A stretch of 64,000 nucleotides of DNA from an uncultured Actinomycetota bacterium. GTDB lineage: Bacteria; Actinomycetota; Actinomycetes; Mycobacteriales; Mycobacteriaceae. Below are positions 12,801-20,095 of this stretch, piece after piece; the first letter of the stretch is position 1, and each line of letters opens with the position of its first letter. Position numbers and translations under genes: made by a program. The stretch covers positions 118,713 to 182,712 of the forward strand of contig CAVZSJ010000005.1 in NCBI GenBank assembly GCA_963777885.1, written 5' to 3'. Below the pieces are notes generated by a model. It saw only the letters and a list, made by a program, of their open reading frames with translations. It did no database searches and was not told the origin of the DNA.

Positions 12801-13192
12801 AGACCCTGCAGCAATTGATCGGATCGCAGACCCCGGTGCTGATGGACATCGCGACGGCCGCCAACTTTCCGTGCCAGCGGCCGTTCTCCGAACACCTTGG
12901 CGTCGCTGAACTTCCGCAATACCGCCTGATGCCCGACCATAAACAGACGGCGGCATCGTCGAACGGGTGGCAGGCCAGCGAGGCCGGCGGGCCATTCTTG
13001 TTCACTCAGGCAATGCTTTATACCTCGACCGTCTCGACCTACCTGCGTGGCGACTGGTATCGGGATTGGGGATCGGTCGAGCAGTATCACCGGCTCGTGT
13101 CGGCCGACCAGGCGCCCGACGCCGTTATCGAACAGGGTGTGATGACTGTGCGCGGCTGGAGCCGGCAAGGACCGATTCGGGCATTGCCATGA
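9860..13192 (+). CDS. embA: Arabinosyltransferase EmbA
   Basis: [15 protein letters not shown] start, [32 protein letters not shown]; overlaps embB start. Confidence 0.96.
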
Positions 13193-16100
13193 GTGTCACG
13201 ACCGTCGACAACCGCGAAGCGGCCCCCCGTCAGGACGTGAAGCTGACGCGCTGGGTCGCCACCATCGCCGGCCTGATCGGCTTCGTCTTGTCGGTCGCCA
13301 CGCCGCTACTTCCCGTCGTGCAGACCACCGCGACGCTGAACTGGCCCCAAAACGAGAATGGGCACGGGCAACTGAATAGCGTTACCGCGCCGCTGATTTC
13401 GCTGACACCGGTCGACGTGACGGTCACCGTGCCGTGTTCCGTGGTGCGCGCCCTGCCGCCCGAGGGCGGGGTGATTCTGAGCACCGCACCCAAAAAGGGC
13501 AAGGACGCCGCGCTGAACGCGTTGTTCGTCGTCGCCAGCAGTAAGCGCGTCGACGTCACCGACCGCAATGTGGTGATCGCCAGCGTGCCTCGGGATCAGG
13601 CGGAATCTCCGCAATGTCAGCGCATCGAGATCACGTCCACAAAGGCCGGCGCCTTCGCCACATTCGTCGGACTGAACGACCCGGCAGGAAAGCCGGTCGG
13701 CGGCGGTTTCCCCGATCCCAACTTGCGCCCCCAGATCGTCGGGGTGTTCACGGATCTGACCGGCCCCGCCCCGCCGGGGCTGAAGTTTTCAGCGACCATC
13801 GACACCCGGTTCTCCACCACACCAACGACTTTGAAGCTGGCGGCGATGGTGTTGGCCATCGTGTCCACGATCGTCTCACTCGTCGCGCTGTGGCGCATCG
13901 ACCAATTGGACGGCAGACGGATGCGCCGGCTCATCCCGGCGAACTGGCGAAAGTTCACCCTGGCCGACGCCACGGTCACCTTCGGCTTCGTGCTCTGGCA
14001 TGTGATCGGCGCGAACTCCTCCGACGACGGCTACATCCTGGGCATGGCGCGAGTCGCCGGTCCCGCCGGCTACATGTCCAACTACTTCCGTTGGTTCGGC
14101 AGCCCGGAGGACCCGTTCGGCTGGTACTACAACCTGCTGGCGCTGATGACCCGCGTCAGCGACGGCAGCCTGTGGATGCGCTTGCCGGACTTGATCGCCG
14201 GTCTGCTGTGCTGGCTGCTGCTGTCGCGTGAAGTGCTGCCCCGGCTCGGGCCCGCGGTGGCATCCAGCAAGGCGGCGACCTGGGCGGCAGGCCTGGTCCT
14301 GTTGACGGCGTGGATGCCGTTCGACAACGGCCTTCGCCCCGAGCCGATCATCGCGCTGGGTTCGCTGGTCACCTACGTGCTGATCGAACGTTCGATGCGC
14401 TACAGCCGGCTGACGCCTGCGGCGCTGGCGGTCATCACCGCGGCATTCACCCTCGGTGTCCAGCCCACCGGCCTGATCGCGGTGGCCGCATTGGTCGCCG
14501 GCGGCCGCCCGATCCTGCGCATCCTGGTGCGACGCCACCGCGTGGTTGGCACCTGGCCGTTGGTGGCTCCGATACTGGCGGCCGGCACCATCATCCTCAC
14601 CGTGGTGTTCGCCGACCAGACACTGTCGACGGTGTTGGAAGCCACCAGGATTCGCACCGCTATCGGTCCCAGCCAGGCGTGGTACACCGAGAACCTGCGC
14701 TACTACTACCTCATCTTGCCCACGGTGGACGGTTCGTTGTCGCGCCGGTTCGGCTTTTTGATCACCGCGCTGTGCTTATTCACCGCGTTGTTTATCATGT
14801 TGCGGCGCAAGCGAGTTCCGGGAGTCGCCCGAGGGCCGGCGTGGCGGCTGATGGGTGTCATCTTCGGCACCATGTTCTTCCTGATGTTCACCCCGACCAA
14901 GTGGGTGCACCACTTCGGGCTGTTCGCCGCGGTGGGTGCGGCGATGGCCGCGCTGACGACGGTGCTGGTGTCGCATGAGGTGCTGCGCTGGTCGCGCAAC
15001 CGCATGACGTTCGTGGCGGCGGTGTTGTTCGTCTTGGCGCTCTGCTTCGCCACCACCAACGGCTGGTGGTACGTCTCGAGCTACGGCGTCCCGTTCAACA
15101 ACGTCATGCCCAGGCTCCATGGGATCAGCATCAGCGCAGTCCTTTTCGCGTTTTTCGCGATCGCGGCTCTGTGGGCGGTCTGGTTGCACTTCGCGTCCCC
15201 GACCCGCGGTGAGGGCCGGCTGGCGCGGGCGGTGACCGCGGCGCCGGTGCCGATAGCGGCCGGATTCATGGCGCTGGTGTTCATCGCGTCGATGGTCGCC
15301 GGAATCGTGCGCCAGTACCCCACCTACTCCAACGGCTGGGCCAACTTGCGCGAGTTCGCCGGAGGCTGTGCGCTGGCCGACGACGTCCTCGTCGAGCCGG
15401 ACAGTAACGCCGGCTTCATGGTGCCTCTCAAAACTGGGGCGCCCGACAATTACGGCGCCCTGGGCGCGCTGGGTGGTGTCGCCCCAACAGGATTCACCCC
15501 CAACGGGGTGCCGGAACGGACCCTGGCCGAGGCGGTCCGCGAGACGTCGGTGCCGCAGCCCGGCACGGACTACGACTGGGATGCGCCGACCAAACTGACG
15601 GCGCCGGGCATCAACGGATCGACTGTGCCGCTGCCCTACGGCCTTGACCCGCAACGGGTTCCGCTAGCGGGTAGCTACACCACAGGCGCGCAGCAGCAGA
15701 GCAGGCTGACCTCGGCGTGGTATCAGCTGCCCAAGCCGGACGCCGGGCACCCCTTGGTGGTGGTGACCGCCGCGGGCAGGATCGCCGGCAACAGCGTGCT
15801 GCACGGACACACCGACGGGCAGACCGTCGTGCTGGAATACGGCACCACCGGGCCCGGCGGAGAACTGGTGCCGGCCGGTCGGCTGGTGCCCTACGACCTG
15901 TACGGCGAGCAGCCCAAGGTGTGGCGCAACCTGCGCTTCGCGCGCTCTCAGATCCCCGAGGGCGCGACCGCGGTGCGGTTGGTGGCTGAGGACCTATCCC
16001 TGACGCCCGAAGACTGGATCGCGGTGACCCCACCTCGGGTGCCGGAATTGCGCTCCCTGCAGGAGTACGTCGGCTCGACGCAGCCGGTGCTGCTGGACTG

Positions 16101-16434
16101 GGCGGTCGGCCTGGCGTTCCCGTGCCAGCAGCCGATGCTGCACGTCAACGGTGTCACCGAGATCCCGAAATTCCGCATCACCCCGGACTACAACGCCAAG
16201 AAGCAGGACACCGACACCTGGCAGGACGGCGTCAACGGCGGCCTGCTGGGAATCAGCGACCTGTTGTTGCGCGCCCATGTGATGTCCACGTATCTGTCCC
16301 GTGACTGGGGCCGAGACTGGGGATCGCTGCGCAAGTTCGAGACGATCGCCGATGCGCACCCTGCGCAACTCGACCTGAGTACGGCGACCCGCAGCGGCCT
16401 GTGGTCTCCGGGACCGATCCGCATCAAGCCCTAA
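13189..16434 (+). CDS. embB: Arabinosyltransferase EmbB
   Basis: ATGA overlap with emb[51 protein letters not shown]. Confidence 0.96.
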
Positions 16435-16642
16435 GCCGGATGCGGTGTTCCCAGGTAGGGGAAGTCATCCAGGGTGTCGGTGTGCGGACTCAGTCCCGGC
16501 GGGGGAACCTCACCTTTGGTGGCTCTTCGTAATCGAGAGTGCCGGAAAACGAATACGCGGGGTTACCAGTAATCTCCGGCGCGTCCGCATTGGGTGCGAA
16601 TTGGCCGGTCCCCTTGTCATGCGACCCTCCAACCACTCACAC

Positions 16643-16661
16643 TAGTAAAATATCTTTACTA
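16643..16661. promoter_or_regulatory. AT-rich inverted repeat, candidate operator
   Basis: TAGTAAA-ATATC-TTTACTA, perfect 7-5-7. Confidence 0.5.
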
Positions 16662-16843
16662 CCGTAGTCATACAGCAGTACCGTTGACAGCAGCAAGAAG
16701 TACGAATTCGCTGATGGCCAGATGGCGCTTGCGCAGCGCTGCGCACGCGCCGTCGCGGTCGGGTCTGCGGCGATCTGACTCGGCAGTGTTGACGTAGGTT
16801 ATGTACATCATGGGAGCAGTTGGGCGATGGAGCCGAGAACGGT

Positions 16844-17287
16844 ATGGACGACGCGCAGCCGGTTGATCTAGGGGTGGCGTTGTTCATCCCGTATCGGTAC
16901 ATGGAAGACCGAATCTTCCGGGCCATCCAAGATGCCGGGTTCGACGACTGGACCCTGGCCCAGGTCCGAGTGTTTCAACGCATCGCCCCGGATGGTTCGC
17001 GTCTCACAGACCTCGCTGATCAGGCGCAAGTGAGCAAGCAGAGCGCCGGGGTGCTAGTCGATCAACTGGAACGCTTTGGTTATGTCCGCCGGGTCCCCGA
17101 CCCGACGGATGGGCGCGCCCGGTTGATCGTGATCGAGGAACGTGGCCGGCGGGCGGCCGAGGTGGCGATGGCGACATCCACCGAGATCCTGGAGGAGTGG
17201 GCGGCCTACCTGGGCACCCGCAACTTCACGTTGCTGCAGCAGATCTTGGATCAACTCCGTGAGATCACCGACCCCTACGAGCGGTAA
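16844..17287 (+). CDS. MarR-family transcriptional regulator
   Basis: RLTDLADQAQVSKQSAGVLVDQLERFGYVRRVPDPTDGRARLI wHTH; start 16844 (alternative TTG 16820). Confidence 0.9.
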   Translation: MDDAQPVDLGVALFIPYRYMEDRIFRAIQDAGFDDWTLAQVRVFQRIAPDGSRLTDLADQAQVSKQSAGVLVDQLERFGYVRRVPDPTDGRARLIVIEERGRRAAEVAMATSTEILEEWAAYLGTRNFTLLQQILDQLREITDPYER

Positions 17288-17372
17288 ACCCGGCCGCGCT
17301 GAGCCTTCCGCCCCGTTTCCCGTTCGCCCAAGCCGCCAGGGGCTGCGGGCGCCAGCAGGCTTGGACTCCGCC

Positions 17373-17403
17373 TTGACATTAGTCAGTGTCATTGACTAAT
17401 GTC
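17373..17403 (+). promoter_or_regulatory. Sigma-A-like promoter overlapped by a perfect palindromic operator
   Basis: TTGACA (17373-78), N18, TAATGT (17397-402); GACATTAGTCA-N7-TGACTAATGTC (17375-17403). Confidence 0.7.
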
Positions 17404-17514
17404 GTCAGTGGTTCTTACGATTCTCCGGCGATGGACGGGTGGTTGCCACGATGCAGGCCCAAAACCCGCATTCACCAGCACGCCCATTGATCCCTCAACA
17501 GAAAGTGAAATATT

Positions 17515-18147
17515 ATGAAGTTTCTTGTCCTTGGAGCAACCGGCCGCACCGGCGTCCCCTTCGTCAAAAAGGCACTCGACCAGGGACACCAGGTCACCGC
17601 CCTCGTTCGGCGGTCCGACGCCAACGTTGACTCTCGCGCTCAAATCGTCAGGGGCGACGTCACCGACGCCGCCGTGATCGCGAAGGCAGCCCAGGGCCAC
17701 GACGCGGTGATCAGCACGCTCGGAGTGAAAAGCGTCCGCGAAACCCCCACGTTGATCACAGACACCATCCGTGCCGTCATCGCTTCTGCGAAAACGTCAG
17801 GGGTCGATCGCTTCGTCGTCGTCTCCGCGTTCGGAGTCGGCGACTCTCTTGCCAAGGCATCATTTCTGGCTGGCCTGATCTTCCGCACAGCGCTGCGCAA
17901 AAAATACGCCGACAAAGCCGCGTCGGAAGCTCTCTTGACTGCGAGCGATCTGAAATGGACCCTCGAATACCCTGGGGCGTTGAACAACCGGGACAGCACC
18001 CGATACACCGCTACCGTGCTCGAGAATGTCACAAAACTGCCGATCCTCCCCTCAGCATCCCGCGCAAACGTCGCCGATTTTCTCCTTCACTCCGCCGTGG
18101 AAAACACCTTCATCCGTCAGATCGTCGTCGTCACCGACACCAAATAA
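17515..18147 (+). CDS. NAD(P)H-binding oxidoreductase (biliverdin/flavin-reductase-like atypical SDR)
   Basis: MKFLVLGATGRTG, VTALVR, GDVTD, DAVISTLG, RANVADFLL. Confidence 0.85.
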   Translation: MKFLVLGATGRTGVPFVKKALDQGHQVTALVRRSDANVDSRAQIVRGDVTDAAVIAKAAQGHDAVISTLGVKSVRETPTLITDTIRAVIASAKTSGVDRFVVVSAFGVGDSLAKASFLAGLIFRTALRKKYADKAASEALLTASDLKWTLEYPGALNNRDSTRYTATVLENVTKLPILPSASRANVADFLLHSAVENTFIRQIVVVTDTK

Positions 18148-18565
18148 GTCACCGAGCACGCCCAAAAAACACCGCTCACCAGTGCCCCTTTGGTGAGGAA
18201 GTCCAGCCGGTAGTGCATCGCGTCGTCGGTGAACACCCGGCCGTTCGGATATTGCGCGGGCTGGGACGGATCGAAGTTCAACATGTCCGGCAGGATGCCG
18301 TGTTGGTCGATCGCGGCGACGGCTTCTTCGCGGGTGTAGTTGCCGGTGTGGCCCATCAGGTGGACGAACATTTCGAGCCAGCGGCCTCGGTTGGAATGCG
18401 TACAGATCGCAGAGATCGAGTCGCTGGTCTTGCAGGGTCGGGCAGAGGCTTAGCCCGGTGAAATGGTTGGACACCAATCTCCTTTGAGGACCGCACCTCT
18501 CCCGGAATGTCGCAGCGGTAATCCAATCAGACTTCGCATCGGGGCGGGATGAAACACTAGTCCGC

Positions 18566-19453
18566 ATGTGTTCGGGGCGCCTGGTGATCGCAGGGCTGGT
18601 CGGTGTGGTCGCCGTTGCGTGCGCCGGACCACCCAGATCGAGCCCGGCGAGTCCCCCGCCGGCCACGCCGTTCAACTACGTCGCCGTCGGCGACTCCTAC
18701 GCCGCTGCGCCGGGGGTACCGGACGCGGCACCGCCCGCAGGCTGCCGCAAGTCGTCCAATGGCTACCCGGGGATCCTGGCGCGACAGCTCAAGACGACCA
18801 GCTTCACCAACGCCACCTGCAGCGGCGCCAAGACCGAGAACATCACCGGGCACCCTCAACAGACCACCGACGGTCCGGTCGACCGGCAGATTGACGGGGT
18901 CGGCGCAACCACCGACTTGATCACCATGACGATCGGCGCCAACGACGTGGGTCTGCAGTCCGACGCGGAAGGCTGCCAGGTCACCTCGGCCGATCCCCTG
19001 CCATGCCTTAACGAGTTCGTGATGGGCAATGTCGATCGGATTTCGGAGGCGATCACGGCGGAGTTGCCGGCGTGGGAGGCGCTCATCGACCGACTGCGAG
19101 ACACGGCGCCGCACGCGCGGATCGTCGTCGTGGGGTACGGCACCTTTGTGCGCCCCGGCGGATGCTTCCCGGCGCAGCCGGTGCTGCCGCGCGACGCCGA
19201 TTATTTGCAATCCAAACTAAATGAACTCGATGACGTTCAGCAGCAACTCGCCACCAAGAAGACGGTCGACTATTTTGACACCCGTCCACTTTCGCAAGGC
19301 CACGACATATGTGCCGCCCCCAGCGATCGGTATATCGAAGGATTTGTGCCCACCGGCTCCGCTGTTCGCTTGCATCCCAACGCCTTTGGTGAGACGGCGG
19401 TGGGGAATGCGCTCGCCGGTTACCTCGAAAAGTCTGGGCCGCGCTTTAATTGA
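18566..19453 (+). CDS. Secreted or lipoprotein SGNH/GDSL hydrolase
   Basis: YVAVGDSYAA, IGANDVG, LHPNAFG; several Cys; N-terminal hydrophobic segment ending VAVAC. Confidence 0.85.
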   Translation: MCSGRLVIAGLVGVVAVACAGPPRSSPASPPPATPFNYVAVGDSYAAAPGVPDAAPPAGCRKSSNGYPGILARQLKTTSFTNATCSGAKTENITGHPQQTTDGPVDRQIDGVGATTDLITMTIGANDVGLQSDAEGCQVTSADPLPCLNEFVMGNVDRISEAITAELPAWEALIDRLRDTAPHARIVVVGYGTFVRPGGCFPAQPVLPRDADYLQSKLNELDDVQQQLATKKTVDYFDTRPLSQGHDICAAPSDRYIEGFVPTGSAVRLHPNAFGETAVGNALAGYLEKSGPRFN

Positions 19454-19576: not shown

Positions 19577-20095
19577 ATGAGCGCGCGAACAGTCTGCGGA
19601 ACGTCCGCTGCAGCAGTCACATTATTGACCTTTCCGACAATCGCTTTGGGAGCCGGCACCGCTGATGCCAATCCCGGCGCTAATAGCGTGACCAGAGTTG
19701 TCCTGGACTCCGATCTGAAAAATTGCGATTTCAGCCTGACGCGCACCGCCCCCGCGGTCCCGAGTCCCATCTTGGGCACCGGCTGGGCTGAGATCGTCCA
19801 CACAGGGTCAAGCGCAGTCGCCCAGGTGCATCTCGACGCCCCCAACGAGCCCGGCGCCCATTACAACGTCGGCCTGATCGAGGAGCCGCGACCGTCGTCG
19901 GCTACGTGCGGCCCCGGGGATCCGGGCACGGCCTTCAGCGGCCTCGACACGGACGCGGCCGGCGTGGGAACGGCGACGGTGCAAGACAGCCTCCGGTCCG
20001 GTACGACGGGTGTTTGGGTGATCATCGAGCGCCCCAGCGCTCACTCTCAGGACCCCGCCGAGTTCTACACGTCCGAATTCGTGGCGCCCGTATAG
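19577..20095 (+). CDS. Secreted hypothetical protein
   Basis: 172 aa; signal-like N-terminus (TADA-NP), three Cys, beta-rich mature part; GGGGA upstream. Confidence 0.7.
   Translation: MSARTVCGTSAAAVTLLTFPTIALGAGTADANPGANSVTRVVLDSDLKNCDFSLTRTAPAVPSPILGTGWAEIVHTGSSAVAQVHLDAPNEPGAHYNVGLIEEPRPSSATCGPGDPGTAFSGLDTDAAGVGTATVQDSLRSGTTGVWVIIERPSAHSQDPAEFYTSEFVAPV

Follow-up and report, generated by a model that had tools for sequence, protein, structure and literature searches.

We analysed a stretch of 64,000 nucleotides (hereafter the window, C5:118713-182712) from the genome of a soil mycobacterium-like bacterium, G000 (6.28 Mb, 18 contigs, completeness estimate 100%). Between an embB-type arabinosyltransferase gene and a GDSL lipase gene, the window carries an insert of 1666 bp (16521-18186), which sits in the remnant of a DUF4331 gene and contains a MarR-family regulator gene and a reductase gene. 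This insert consists of the left inverted repeat and the two cargo genes of a transporter insertion sequence (IS) of the ISL3 family. The features of the locus are as follows.

12967-16434, plus strand: embB-type arabinosyltransferase gene (Pfam Arabinose_trans, 4.9e-202, plus EmbC C-terminal and N-terminal domains)
16431-16512, minus strand: DUF4331 pseudogene, last C-terminal piece (26 protein letters not shown), from translation; aligns to residues ~310-334 of the intact homologue of genome G017
16513-16520, no strand: left target-site duplication CCTTTGGT, 8 bp; single copy in the X22 empty-site contig and in the G017 homologue
16521-18186, plus strand: whole fossil element, 1666 bp, left repeat and cargo module, without transposase or right repeat; homology with another copy, on contig C4, and with six full copies begins and ends exactly here
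16521-16542, plus strand: left terminal inverted repeat GGCTCTTCGTAATCGAGAGTGC, 22 bp; identical to the perfect inverted pair of genome G057, and present also in G245, G076, G162 and G205
16820-17287, plus strand: MarR-family regulator gene, 155 aa, TTG start, intact (Pfam MarR_2, PF12802, 3.5e-9; MarR, PF01047, 2.5e-7)
17375-17403, no strand: palindrome with 14-bp arms, GACATTAGTCAGTG/CATTGACTAATGTC, from a repeat search; ~110 bp upstream of the reductase gene
17515-18147, plus strand: NAD(P)H-binding atypical short-chain reductase gene, 210 aa, intact (Pfam NAD_binding_10, PF13460, 3.5e-39, residues 7-193)
18184-18186, plus strand: truncation joint GCC, from junction comparison with the full copies
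18187-18194, no strand: right target-site duplication CCTTTGGT, 8 bp, from sequence comparison and the X22 contig
18195-18390, minus strand: DUF4331 pseudogene, C-terminal piece ..RWLEMFVHLMGHTG..YRLDFLTKG; aligns to homologue residues ~241-309
18391-18474, minus strand: DUF4331 pseudogene, N-terminal 28 codons VSNHFTGLSLCPTLQDQRLDLCDLYAFQ, in another frame; aligns to homologue residues 1-28

An 8-bp target duplication and its empty site

The direct repeat reported around the insert in a preliminary description of this DNA was found again, CCTTTGGTG standing at 16513-16521 and at 18187-18195. Counting a further copy at 19383-19391, the 9-mer occurs three times in the window, against 0.38 expected from shuffles, and 0 of 100 shuffles reached three. 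The repeat had been taken for a 9-bp duplication, which is one base too many. On the left side its ninth base, a G, opens the left inverted repeat of the element, and on the right side it belongs to the native flank, where G017 has it too; this leaves a true target duplication of 8 bp (CCTTTGGT). The third copy, which extends to CCTTTGGTG(AG) at 19383-19393 and has 11 bases in common with 18187-18197, falls within the lipase gene codons ..HPNAFGET..; no insertion or break of homology is seen there, and it is probably due to chance in a constrained coding motif.

An empty site was found, as the preliminary description had proposed to check. A 372-nt contig from soil run X22, with 0 mismatches to the end of embB and to the DUF4331 tail, jumps from 16512 to 18187, and thereby skips 1674 bases, that is the 1666-bp element and the 8-bp duplication. 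This contig is the empty-site allele within the same species, and the insertion is recent enough for such an allele to persist there. In the DNA of the G017 homologue, one ACCAAAGG stands at the point where the window carries the insert.

The host gene had been reconstructed by joining the flanks, and this reconstruction holds. When the insert is removed in silico, the minus-strand sequence ..RLDFLTKG (from 18196) and the 16431-16512 peptide fall in one frame and give the DUF4331 C-terminus, whose stop codon, TAG (complement of 16431-16433), shares bases with the TAA that ends embB (16432-16434). The case had been made to depend on relatives having a contiguous gene across the junction, and on the 16431-16512 peptide belonging to the DUF4331 C-terminus. 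Both were observed: intact homologues of 336-345 aa run uninterrupted across the junction (e.g. G017:C64, ..YRLAFLTKGDCPPTGLSPHTDTLDVFPYLGTPHP), and the peptide aligns to the last part of the G017 protein. The G017:C64 homologue matches Pfam DUF4331 (PF14224) at 7.6e-32. The 92-aa fragment of the window has no Pfam match when searched alone, and is collinear with G017 residues 241-334.

A second copy and six full-length relatives

The insert also occurs elsewhere, as a search suggested in the preliminary description revealed. A second copy is present in G000 itself, at C4:252966-254626. It is 93.5% identical to the window copy, has the same truncated ends to the base, and is flanked on both sides by a different 8-bp duplication, AGTTTGAC. 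Ends that are the same, next to short duplications that differ, mark a transposition event and not a repair event. No empty site for the C4 copy was found in relatives, its intergenic target not being conserved.

Among 401 genomes of the same genus, six further ones carry full-length matches, 92-98% identical and each with a different left flank, which makes a total of eight copies at eight sites in seven genomes. In 6/6 full copies, the ...CAGTGCC with which the unit ends (CACCAGTGCC) runs on into ATCACC-GGCCCTTCGTAA(A)TTCAGAG(T/C)GC, followed by a minus-strand transposase gene and then by GCACTCTCGATTACGAAGAGCC; the right repeat ends ...GAAGAGCC. The copy of G057 has perfect 22-bp terminal inverted repeats (L045 4138-4159 and 6737-6758), with the duplication TATTTAGT on both sides. 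Duplications of 8 bp were found for four of the six full copies, namely those of G057, G245 (CCTTTATT), G162 (ATCAAAAT) and G205 (GGTAATCG/GGCAATCG); those of G076 and G139 have none. The copy of G076 encodes an intact transposase of 440 aa, which matches Pfam DDE_Tnp_ISL3 (PF01610) at 3.1e-53 and NCBIfam ISL3 (NF033550) at 2.3e-98, and has the ISL3 helix-turn-helix and zinc ribbon; the transposase genes of the remaining full copies bear frameshifts or internal deletions. Related plain IS copies (75-87% protein identity) are ~1.47 kb long and have the same repeats, 8-bp duplications being found in 6 of them. The ATCACC therefore lies outside the IS proper. In the full transposon, of ~2.2-3.1 kb, the left repeat is followed by the cargo, ATCACC and the inner repeat, then by the transposase gene, which runs on the opposite strand, and last by the right repeat. 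The complete object is an ISL3-family transporter IS: an ordinary IS with two cargo genes upstream of it, which an additional, outer left repeat brings inside the element.

These relatives bear on what had been said of the ends and content of the insert. The preliminary description reported no terminal inverted repeats. This is right for the right end, where the repeat is gone with the IS and ...CAGTGCC directly abuts the duplication at 18186, and wrong for the left end, where the 22-bp repeat is present. An inverted-repeat search within the insert alone gave no terminal pair, and the left repeat is recognisable only against the full copies. The statement that the insert contains no recombinase was borne out, and extends to the genome: no ISL3 transposase was found in 16521-18186 nor in the 6.28 Mb of G000, by tblastn with the transposase and by a PF01610 search, and no further copies of either terminus exist in G000 beyond the two elements. 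The earlier proposal, that a cassette without transposase is bracketed by a target-site duplication and was either mobilised in trans or deprived of its IS, is upheld by the six full ISL3 copies and by the empty-site allele.

Both cargo genes are intact. The marR reading frame and the reductase gene are open in 8/8 element copies, and 204-206 of the 210 residues of the reductase are identical across copies. The best PDB matches of the reductase are to flavin reductase (NADPH)/biliverdin IXbeta reductase (BLVRB), at 1.9e-14 over residues 2-110. The palindrome at 17375-17403 is a candidate MarR operator. The regulator-reductase cassette is an immobile, probably functional accessory operon; a detoxification role for it is a guess.

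Full-length elements were also looked for in metagenomes of soils. A sister element was found in runs X3/X2 (aligned to L045 5650-6790), which shares the private allele of the window copy, C at 17930. It occupies a different site, with the right flank GGTTTACCGG.. / GGTTTACCGGTTACGG.. that is absent from G000, and represents a possible donor lineage in the same soils. A scan of metagenome contigs with a 31-nt left-end pattern gave 0 matches. For genome contigs, the right-end pattern AACACCGCN{1,2}ACCAGTGCC was too loose and gave 120 mostly random matches, of which 2 were real, the G076 copy and the L091 full-type copy.

Several side observations concern the element copies and their surroundings. 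In the marR region (columns 259-874 of the alignment of 8 copies, window ~16780-17390), a mosaic block is ~11% diverged between two groups of copies, and outside it the element differs by 1-2% between copies. The block suggests that the regulator allele was exchanged by recombination, either from one element to another or against that of a native locus. At loci without the IS (L022 (G009:C5), G291, G190, G102), marR and reductase genes are divergent; in the transposon and in G411, G088, G292 and G279 they have the same direction. The homologues of G411/G088 match the unit only at 94-1647, indicating that its outer 93 bp and last 18 bp are not native-locus sequence. Upstream of marR lie a near-perfect 34-bp palindrome, GATGGCGCTTGCGCAGC/GCTGCGCACGCGCCGTC, at 16721-16754, and a repeat with 7-bp arms, TAGTAAA..TTTACTA, at 16643-16661.

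At the C4 site, ~100 bp from the element, a 53-bp copy of a tRNA 3' end was found (C4:252810-252863, 92% identical). The tRNA gene itself (C4:284387-284439) is located 31.5 kb from this partial copy, on the same strand, an arrangement that resembles the scar left at its attachment site by an integrated island. Strains differ at this site: along the C4 flank downstream of a polyketide synthase gene (L017 7620-7885), the sequence of runs X1-X3 changes immediately behind AGTTTGACGGG to unrelated DNA (..GCGGACGGGTACGGGG..), and these runs lack the second C4 flank; X21 and X11 have the G000 arrangement. The breakpoint and the element's duplication are 3 bp apart.

Possible routes to the truncated form

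We favour a loss of the IS half after insertion, to which we give a rough probability of 0.55-0.6. A DDE transposase inserted the element into CCTTTGGT, inside the DUF4331 gene downstream of embB, duplicating 8 bp. On the favoured reading the complete element would have landed first, and its IS half (6 bp and ~1.47 kb) would have been deleted afterwards, between two GCC triplets, one of them at a distance of 6 bp from the inner repeat, on its outer side, and the second forming the tip of the right repeat. Both GCC partners being internal to the element, the same product would form at any insertion site, and this would explain why the C4 copy ends identically. The end state would be an intact regulator-reductase pair stranded with one inverted repeat, in a genome without the transposase. 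The junctions compare as follows: full copies read ...CAGTGCC, ATCACC, the IS up to ...GAAGAGCC, and then the duplication, whereas truncated copies pass from ...CAGTGCC directly to the duplication. What is missing is the IS and 6 bp, with a 3-bp direct repeat, GCC, at the bounds. The GCC joint, a deletion near IS length, the weakness of the only candidate for a surrogate right end (see below), and the full-length sister with C at 17930 in the same soil study all argue in favour of such a loss.

Other observations weigh against it. Alleles at the DUF4331 site were examined in 15 metagenome runs, and only the truncated and the empty ones were seen; no full-element allele, in which the right repeat ...CGATTACGAAGAGCC is joined to CCTTTGGTGAGG, was present in these runs, so that we infer loss after insertion rather than observe it. 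A loss with an identical joint is needed at two loci, despite a 2-bp microhomology, CC, being available at the IS boundary. The six other genomes decay differently, their transposase gene being deleted internally or frameshifted with both repeats kept. G000 is the sole genome with truncated copies and it has two, and a history specific to this genome could equally fit direct delivery of the truncated form. The two G000 copies were likely truncated independently. A tree at first suggested separate lineages for them, placing the window copy with G057/G245 and the C4 copy with G076/G162. This two-lineage signal is however weakened, because it rests only on the mosaic marR block: all 54 lineage-diagnostic sites are in or just before that block, and elsewhere the copies form a star without shared derived sites.

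The ISL3 transposase itself may make the truncated unit in a fixed way, either by ejecting the IS and the 6-bp spacer, after which the donor closes again at the GCC that tips the right repeat, or by using GGCACTGG as a weak second right end. We consider this possible, though less likely than not; if true, the element would have a built-in way of dropping its cargo permanently into a new genome, with the same product at every site. The rival to loss after insertion, which we hold to be clearly less probable than that loss, is that the truncated unit itself transposed, an ISL3 transposase acting in trans or from a transient donor having paired the left repeat with the surrogate end ...CACCAGTGCC (reverse complement GGCACTGG..). 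The cargo module alone would then have been inserted twice and the IS never kept, much like a mobile insertion cassette (MIC) with one degenerate end. Such a route accounts for the perfect 8-bp duplications that abut ...GTGCC in both G000 copies, as expected of strand transfer at that point, and the tip GGC and positions 5-6 of the surrogate end fit the repeat consensus GGCTCT. It also agrees with the absence of ISL3 transposase or repeat remnants elsewhere in G000, with the failure to find a full-length allele at the site in the 15 runs, with the restriction of truncated copies to G000, and with the near-identical full elements of the same soils, which are possible donors. On the other hand, the putative end (GGCACTGGTGAG..) aligns with the repeat consensus at 9/22 positions and lacks the conserved AGAGTGC block, its position 6 bp from the genuine IS end is left as a coincidence, and no truncated copies are found in the genomes with full elements, the one with an intact transposase included. 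We know of no documented use of a surrogate end in the ISL3 family.

Explanations that do without transposition are far less probable. Ku/LigD end joining is present in mycobacteria, and a free marR-reductase fragment might have been used to mend a double-strand break, through end joining or microhomology, with the 9-bp repeat as a by-product of repair; the window copy, taken alone, shows no inverted-repeat pair and would fit this. The preliminary description had also allowed for microhomology insertion. A fragment with identical ends nevertheless occupies another locus in G000, where the 8-bp duplication is a different one, the left end is an exact 22-bp ISL3 repeat, and an 8-bp duplication is the signature of the family, seen in four full copies and in 6 related plain IS copies. 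The C4 copy and the left repeat led us to reject repair-mediated capture, which we hold to be very improbable. An artefact, in the form of chimeric junctions in a metagenome assembly or of a chance 9-bp repeat, is the least credible explanation of all. G000 does appear to be assembled from soil metagenomes, and shows 1-nt indels relative to short-read contigs at 16458 and 18155. Against this, independent short-read contigs (Logan) from public soil runs span the left (X1, X2, X3) and the right (X1, X2, X7) junctions of the window copy, and the C4 copy is likewise crossed at its two junctions by X21 contigs, so the structure was not created by the assembly. The empty-site allele, which differs by exactly the element and 8 bp, and the rarity of the 9-mer in shuffles were further grounds for discarding it.

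Known systems and the surrounding DNA

Loss of the IS half after insertion has a counterpart in the decay of Tn6330. In the summary of Snesrud et al. 2018 that Chandler, Ross and Varani give in bioRxiv 10.1101/2023.06.07.543989, loss of flanking ISApl1 (IS30 family) from Tn6330 strands mcr-1-pap2. As described in that text, ISApl1 loss and IEE-stimulated excision involve deletions near IS length between microhomologies of 2-4 bp, require the transposase, and end with cargo that can no longer move; ISL3 elements are counted there among the circle-forming, copy-out-paste-in families (bioRxiv 10.1101/2023.06.07.543989). Our case is alike in that the cargo keeps its original target duplication, lies next to a deletion of about IS length between short microhomologies, and is immobilised: a parent with the IS exists in six copies, the joint is GCC, and the deletion amounts to the IS and 6 bp. 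It differs by the family (ISL3), the host (a soil mycobacterium), and the parent, which has a single IS instead of being a compound transposon. In addition, both microhomology partners lie inside the element, which makes the product independent of the site, and the 15 runs contained no parent allele at the same site.

Within the ISL3 family, the tnpA-fosB3 element of Enterococcus faecium, of 2,435 bp, forms circles with abutted repeats (PMC3812183). The full copies resemble ISL3 transporter IS by their DDE transposase with zinc ribbon and helix-turn-helix, repeats starting GGCTCTTCG, 8-bp duplications, and cargo within the repeats. They differ by the nature of the cargo, here a MarR regulator and a BLVRB-like reductase, and by a third, inner repeat, the IS proper being nested in the whole unit. 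ISPpu12 is a further ISL3 IS with cargo. The window copy itself has the 8-bp duplication and counterparts at different sites in different genomes, lacks the transposase, and has a terminal repeat at its left end only. As the transposase and the right repeat are two defining features, we regard the window copy as a fossil derivative of an ISL3 transporter IS, not as a member capable of moving. MICs and miniature inverted-repeat transposable elements, which are non-autonomous and moved in trans, likewise have no transposase, and cargo genes in two copies, each with its own target duplication, are MIC-like. These elements have however both terminal inverted repeats, whereas the window unit has only the left one and a right end that fits the consensus at 9 positions out of 22, and G000 is devoid of the cognate transposase. 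Strictly speaking, a unit with one repeat only does not count as an MIC.

Events of this kind are known. The present element with its cargo, and the identical truncation of two copies, have as far as can be told not been described before. An apparent orphan cassette would become a documented case in which an ISL3 transporter IS moves a regulator-reductase pair between soil mycobacteria, and then leaves the pair without a transposase. It would be a natural example, outside Enterobacteria and the IS30/IS3 families, of cargo fixed through IS loss, a process that has been proposed for resistance genes without a nearby mobile element. Whether the transposase drives such a loss could be asked in Mycobacterium smegmatis, for which this pair of copies with the same truncation provides a simple system.

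The host gene is more damaged than the preliminary description had noticed, and carries a second lesion. At 18390/18391, ~212 codons (residues 29-240 of the 336-aa homologue) are deleted with a change of frame, ~200 bp from the right end of the element. Only residues 1-28 and ~241-336 survive, in different frames; the spacing between the two DUF4331 matches is ~640 bp in relatives. This deletion is an event separate from the insertion and unrelated to it. The DUF4331 gene is dead regardless of the insertion because of it, and is to be annotated in this genome as a doubly broken pseudogene.

Downstream come the GDSL lipase gene (18566-19453) and a gene for an AidB/FadE-like acyl-CoA dehydrogenase. 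The segment 16435-19690, which comprises the DUF4331 remnant, the insert and the lipase gene, is missing from the three nearest relatives, where embB is followed by ~300 bp and then by the homologue of 19700-20094. This stretch is therefore accessory DNA. In G014 and G023, the lipase gene comes directly after embB.

Two single-base differences were noted in this region. At the G-run at 16458, which affects the last codons of the DUF4331 remnant by shifting them, nearly all short-read contigs have one G fewer than the assembly, the extra G being retained in one X4 contig. After 18155, short-read contigs have one T more. Either strain variation or assembly indel errors may account for these differences. 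Finally, the reductase gene region (window 17466-18177, insert query 945-1656) has 83% DNA identity to three large Streptomyces plasmids. In the plasmid collection, where no copy of the element was found, the reductase gene alone matches; the Streptomyces matches are annotated as NAD(P)-binding oxidoreductase, which hints at a wide horizontal spread of the reductase gene.

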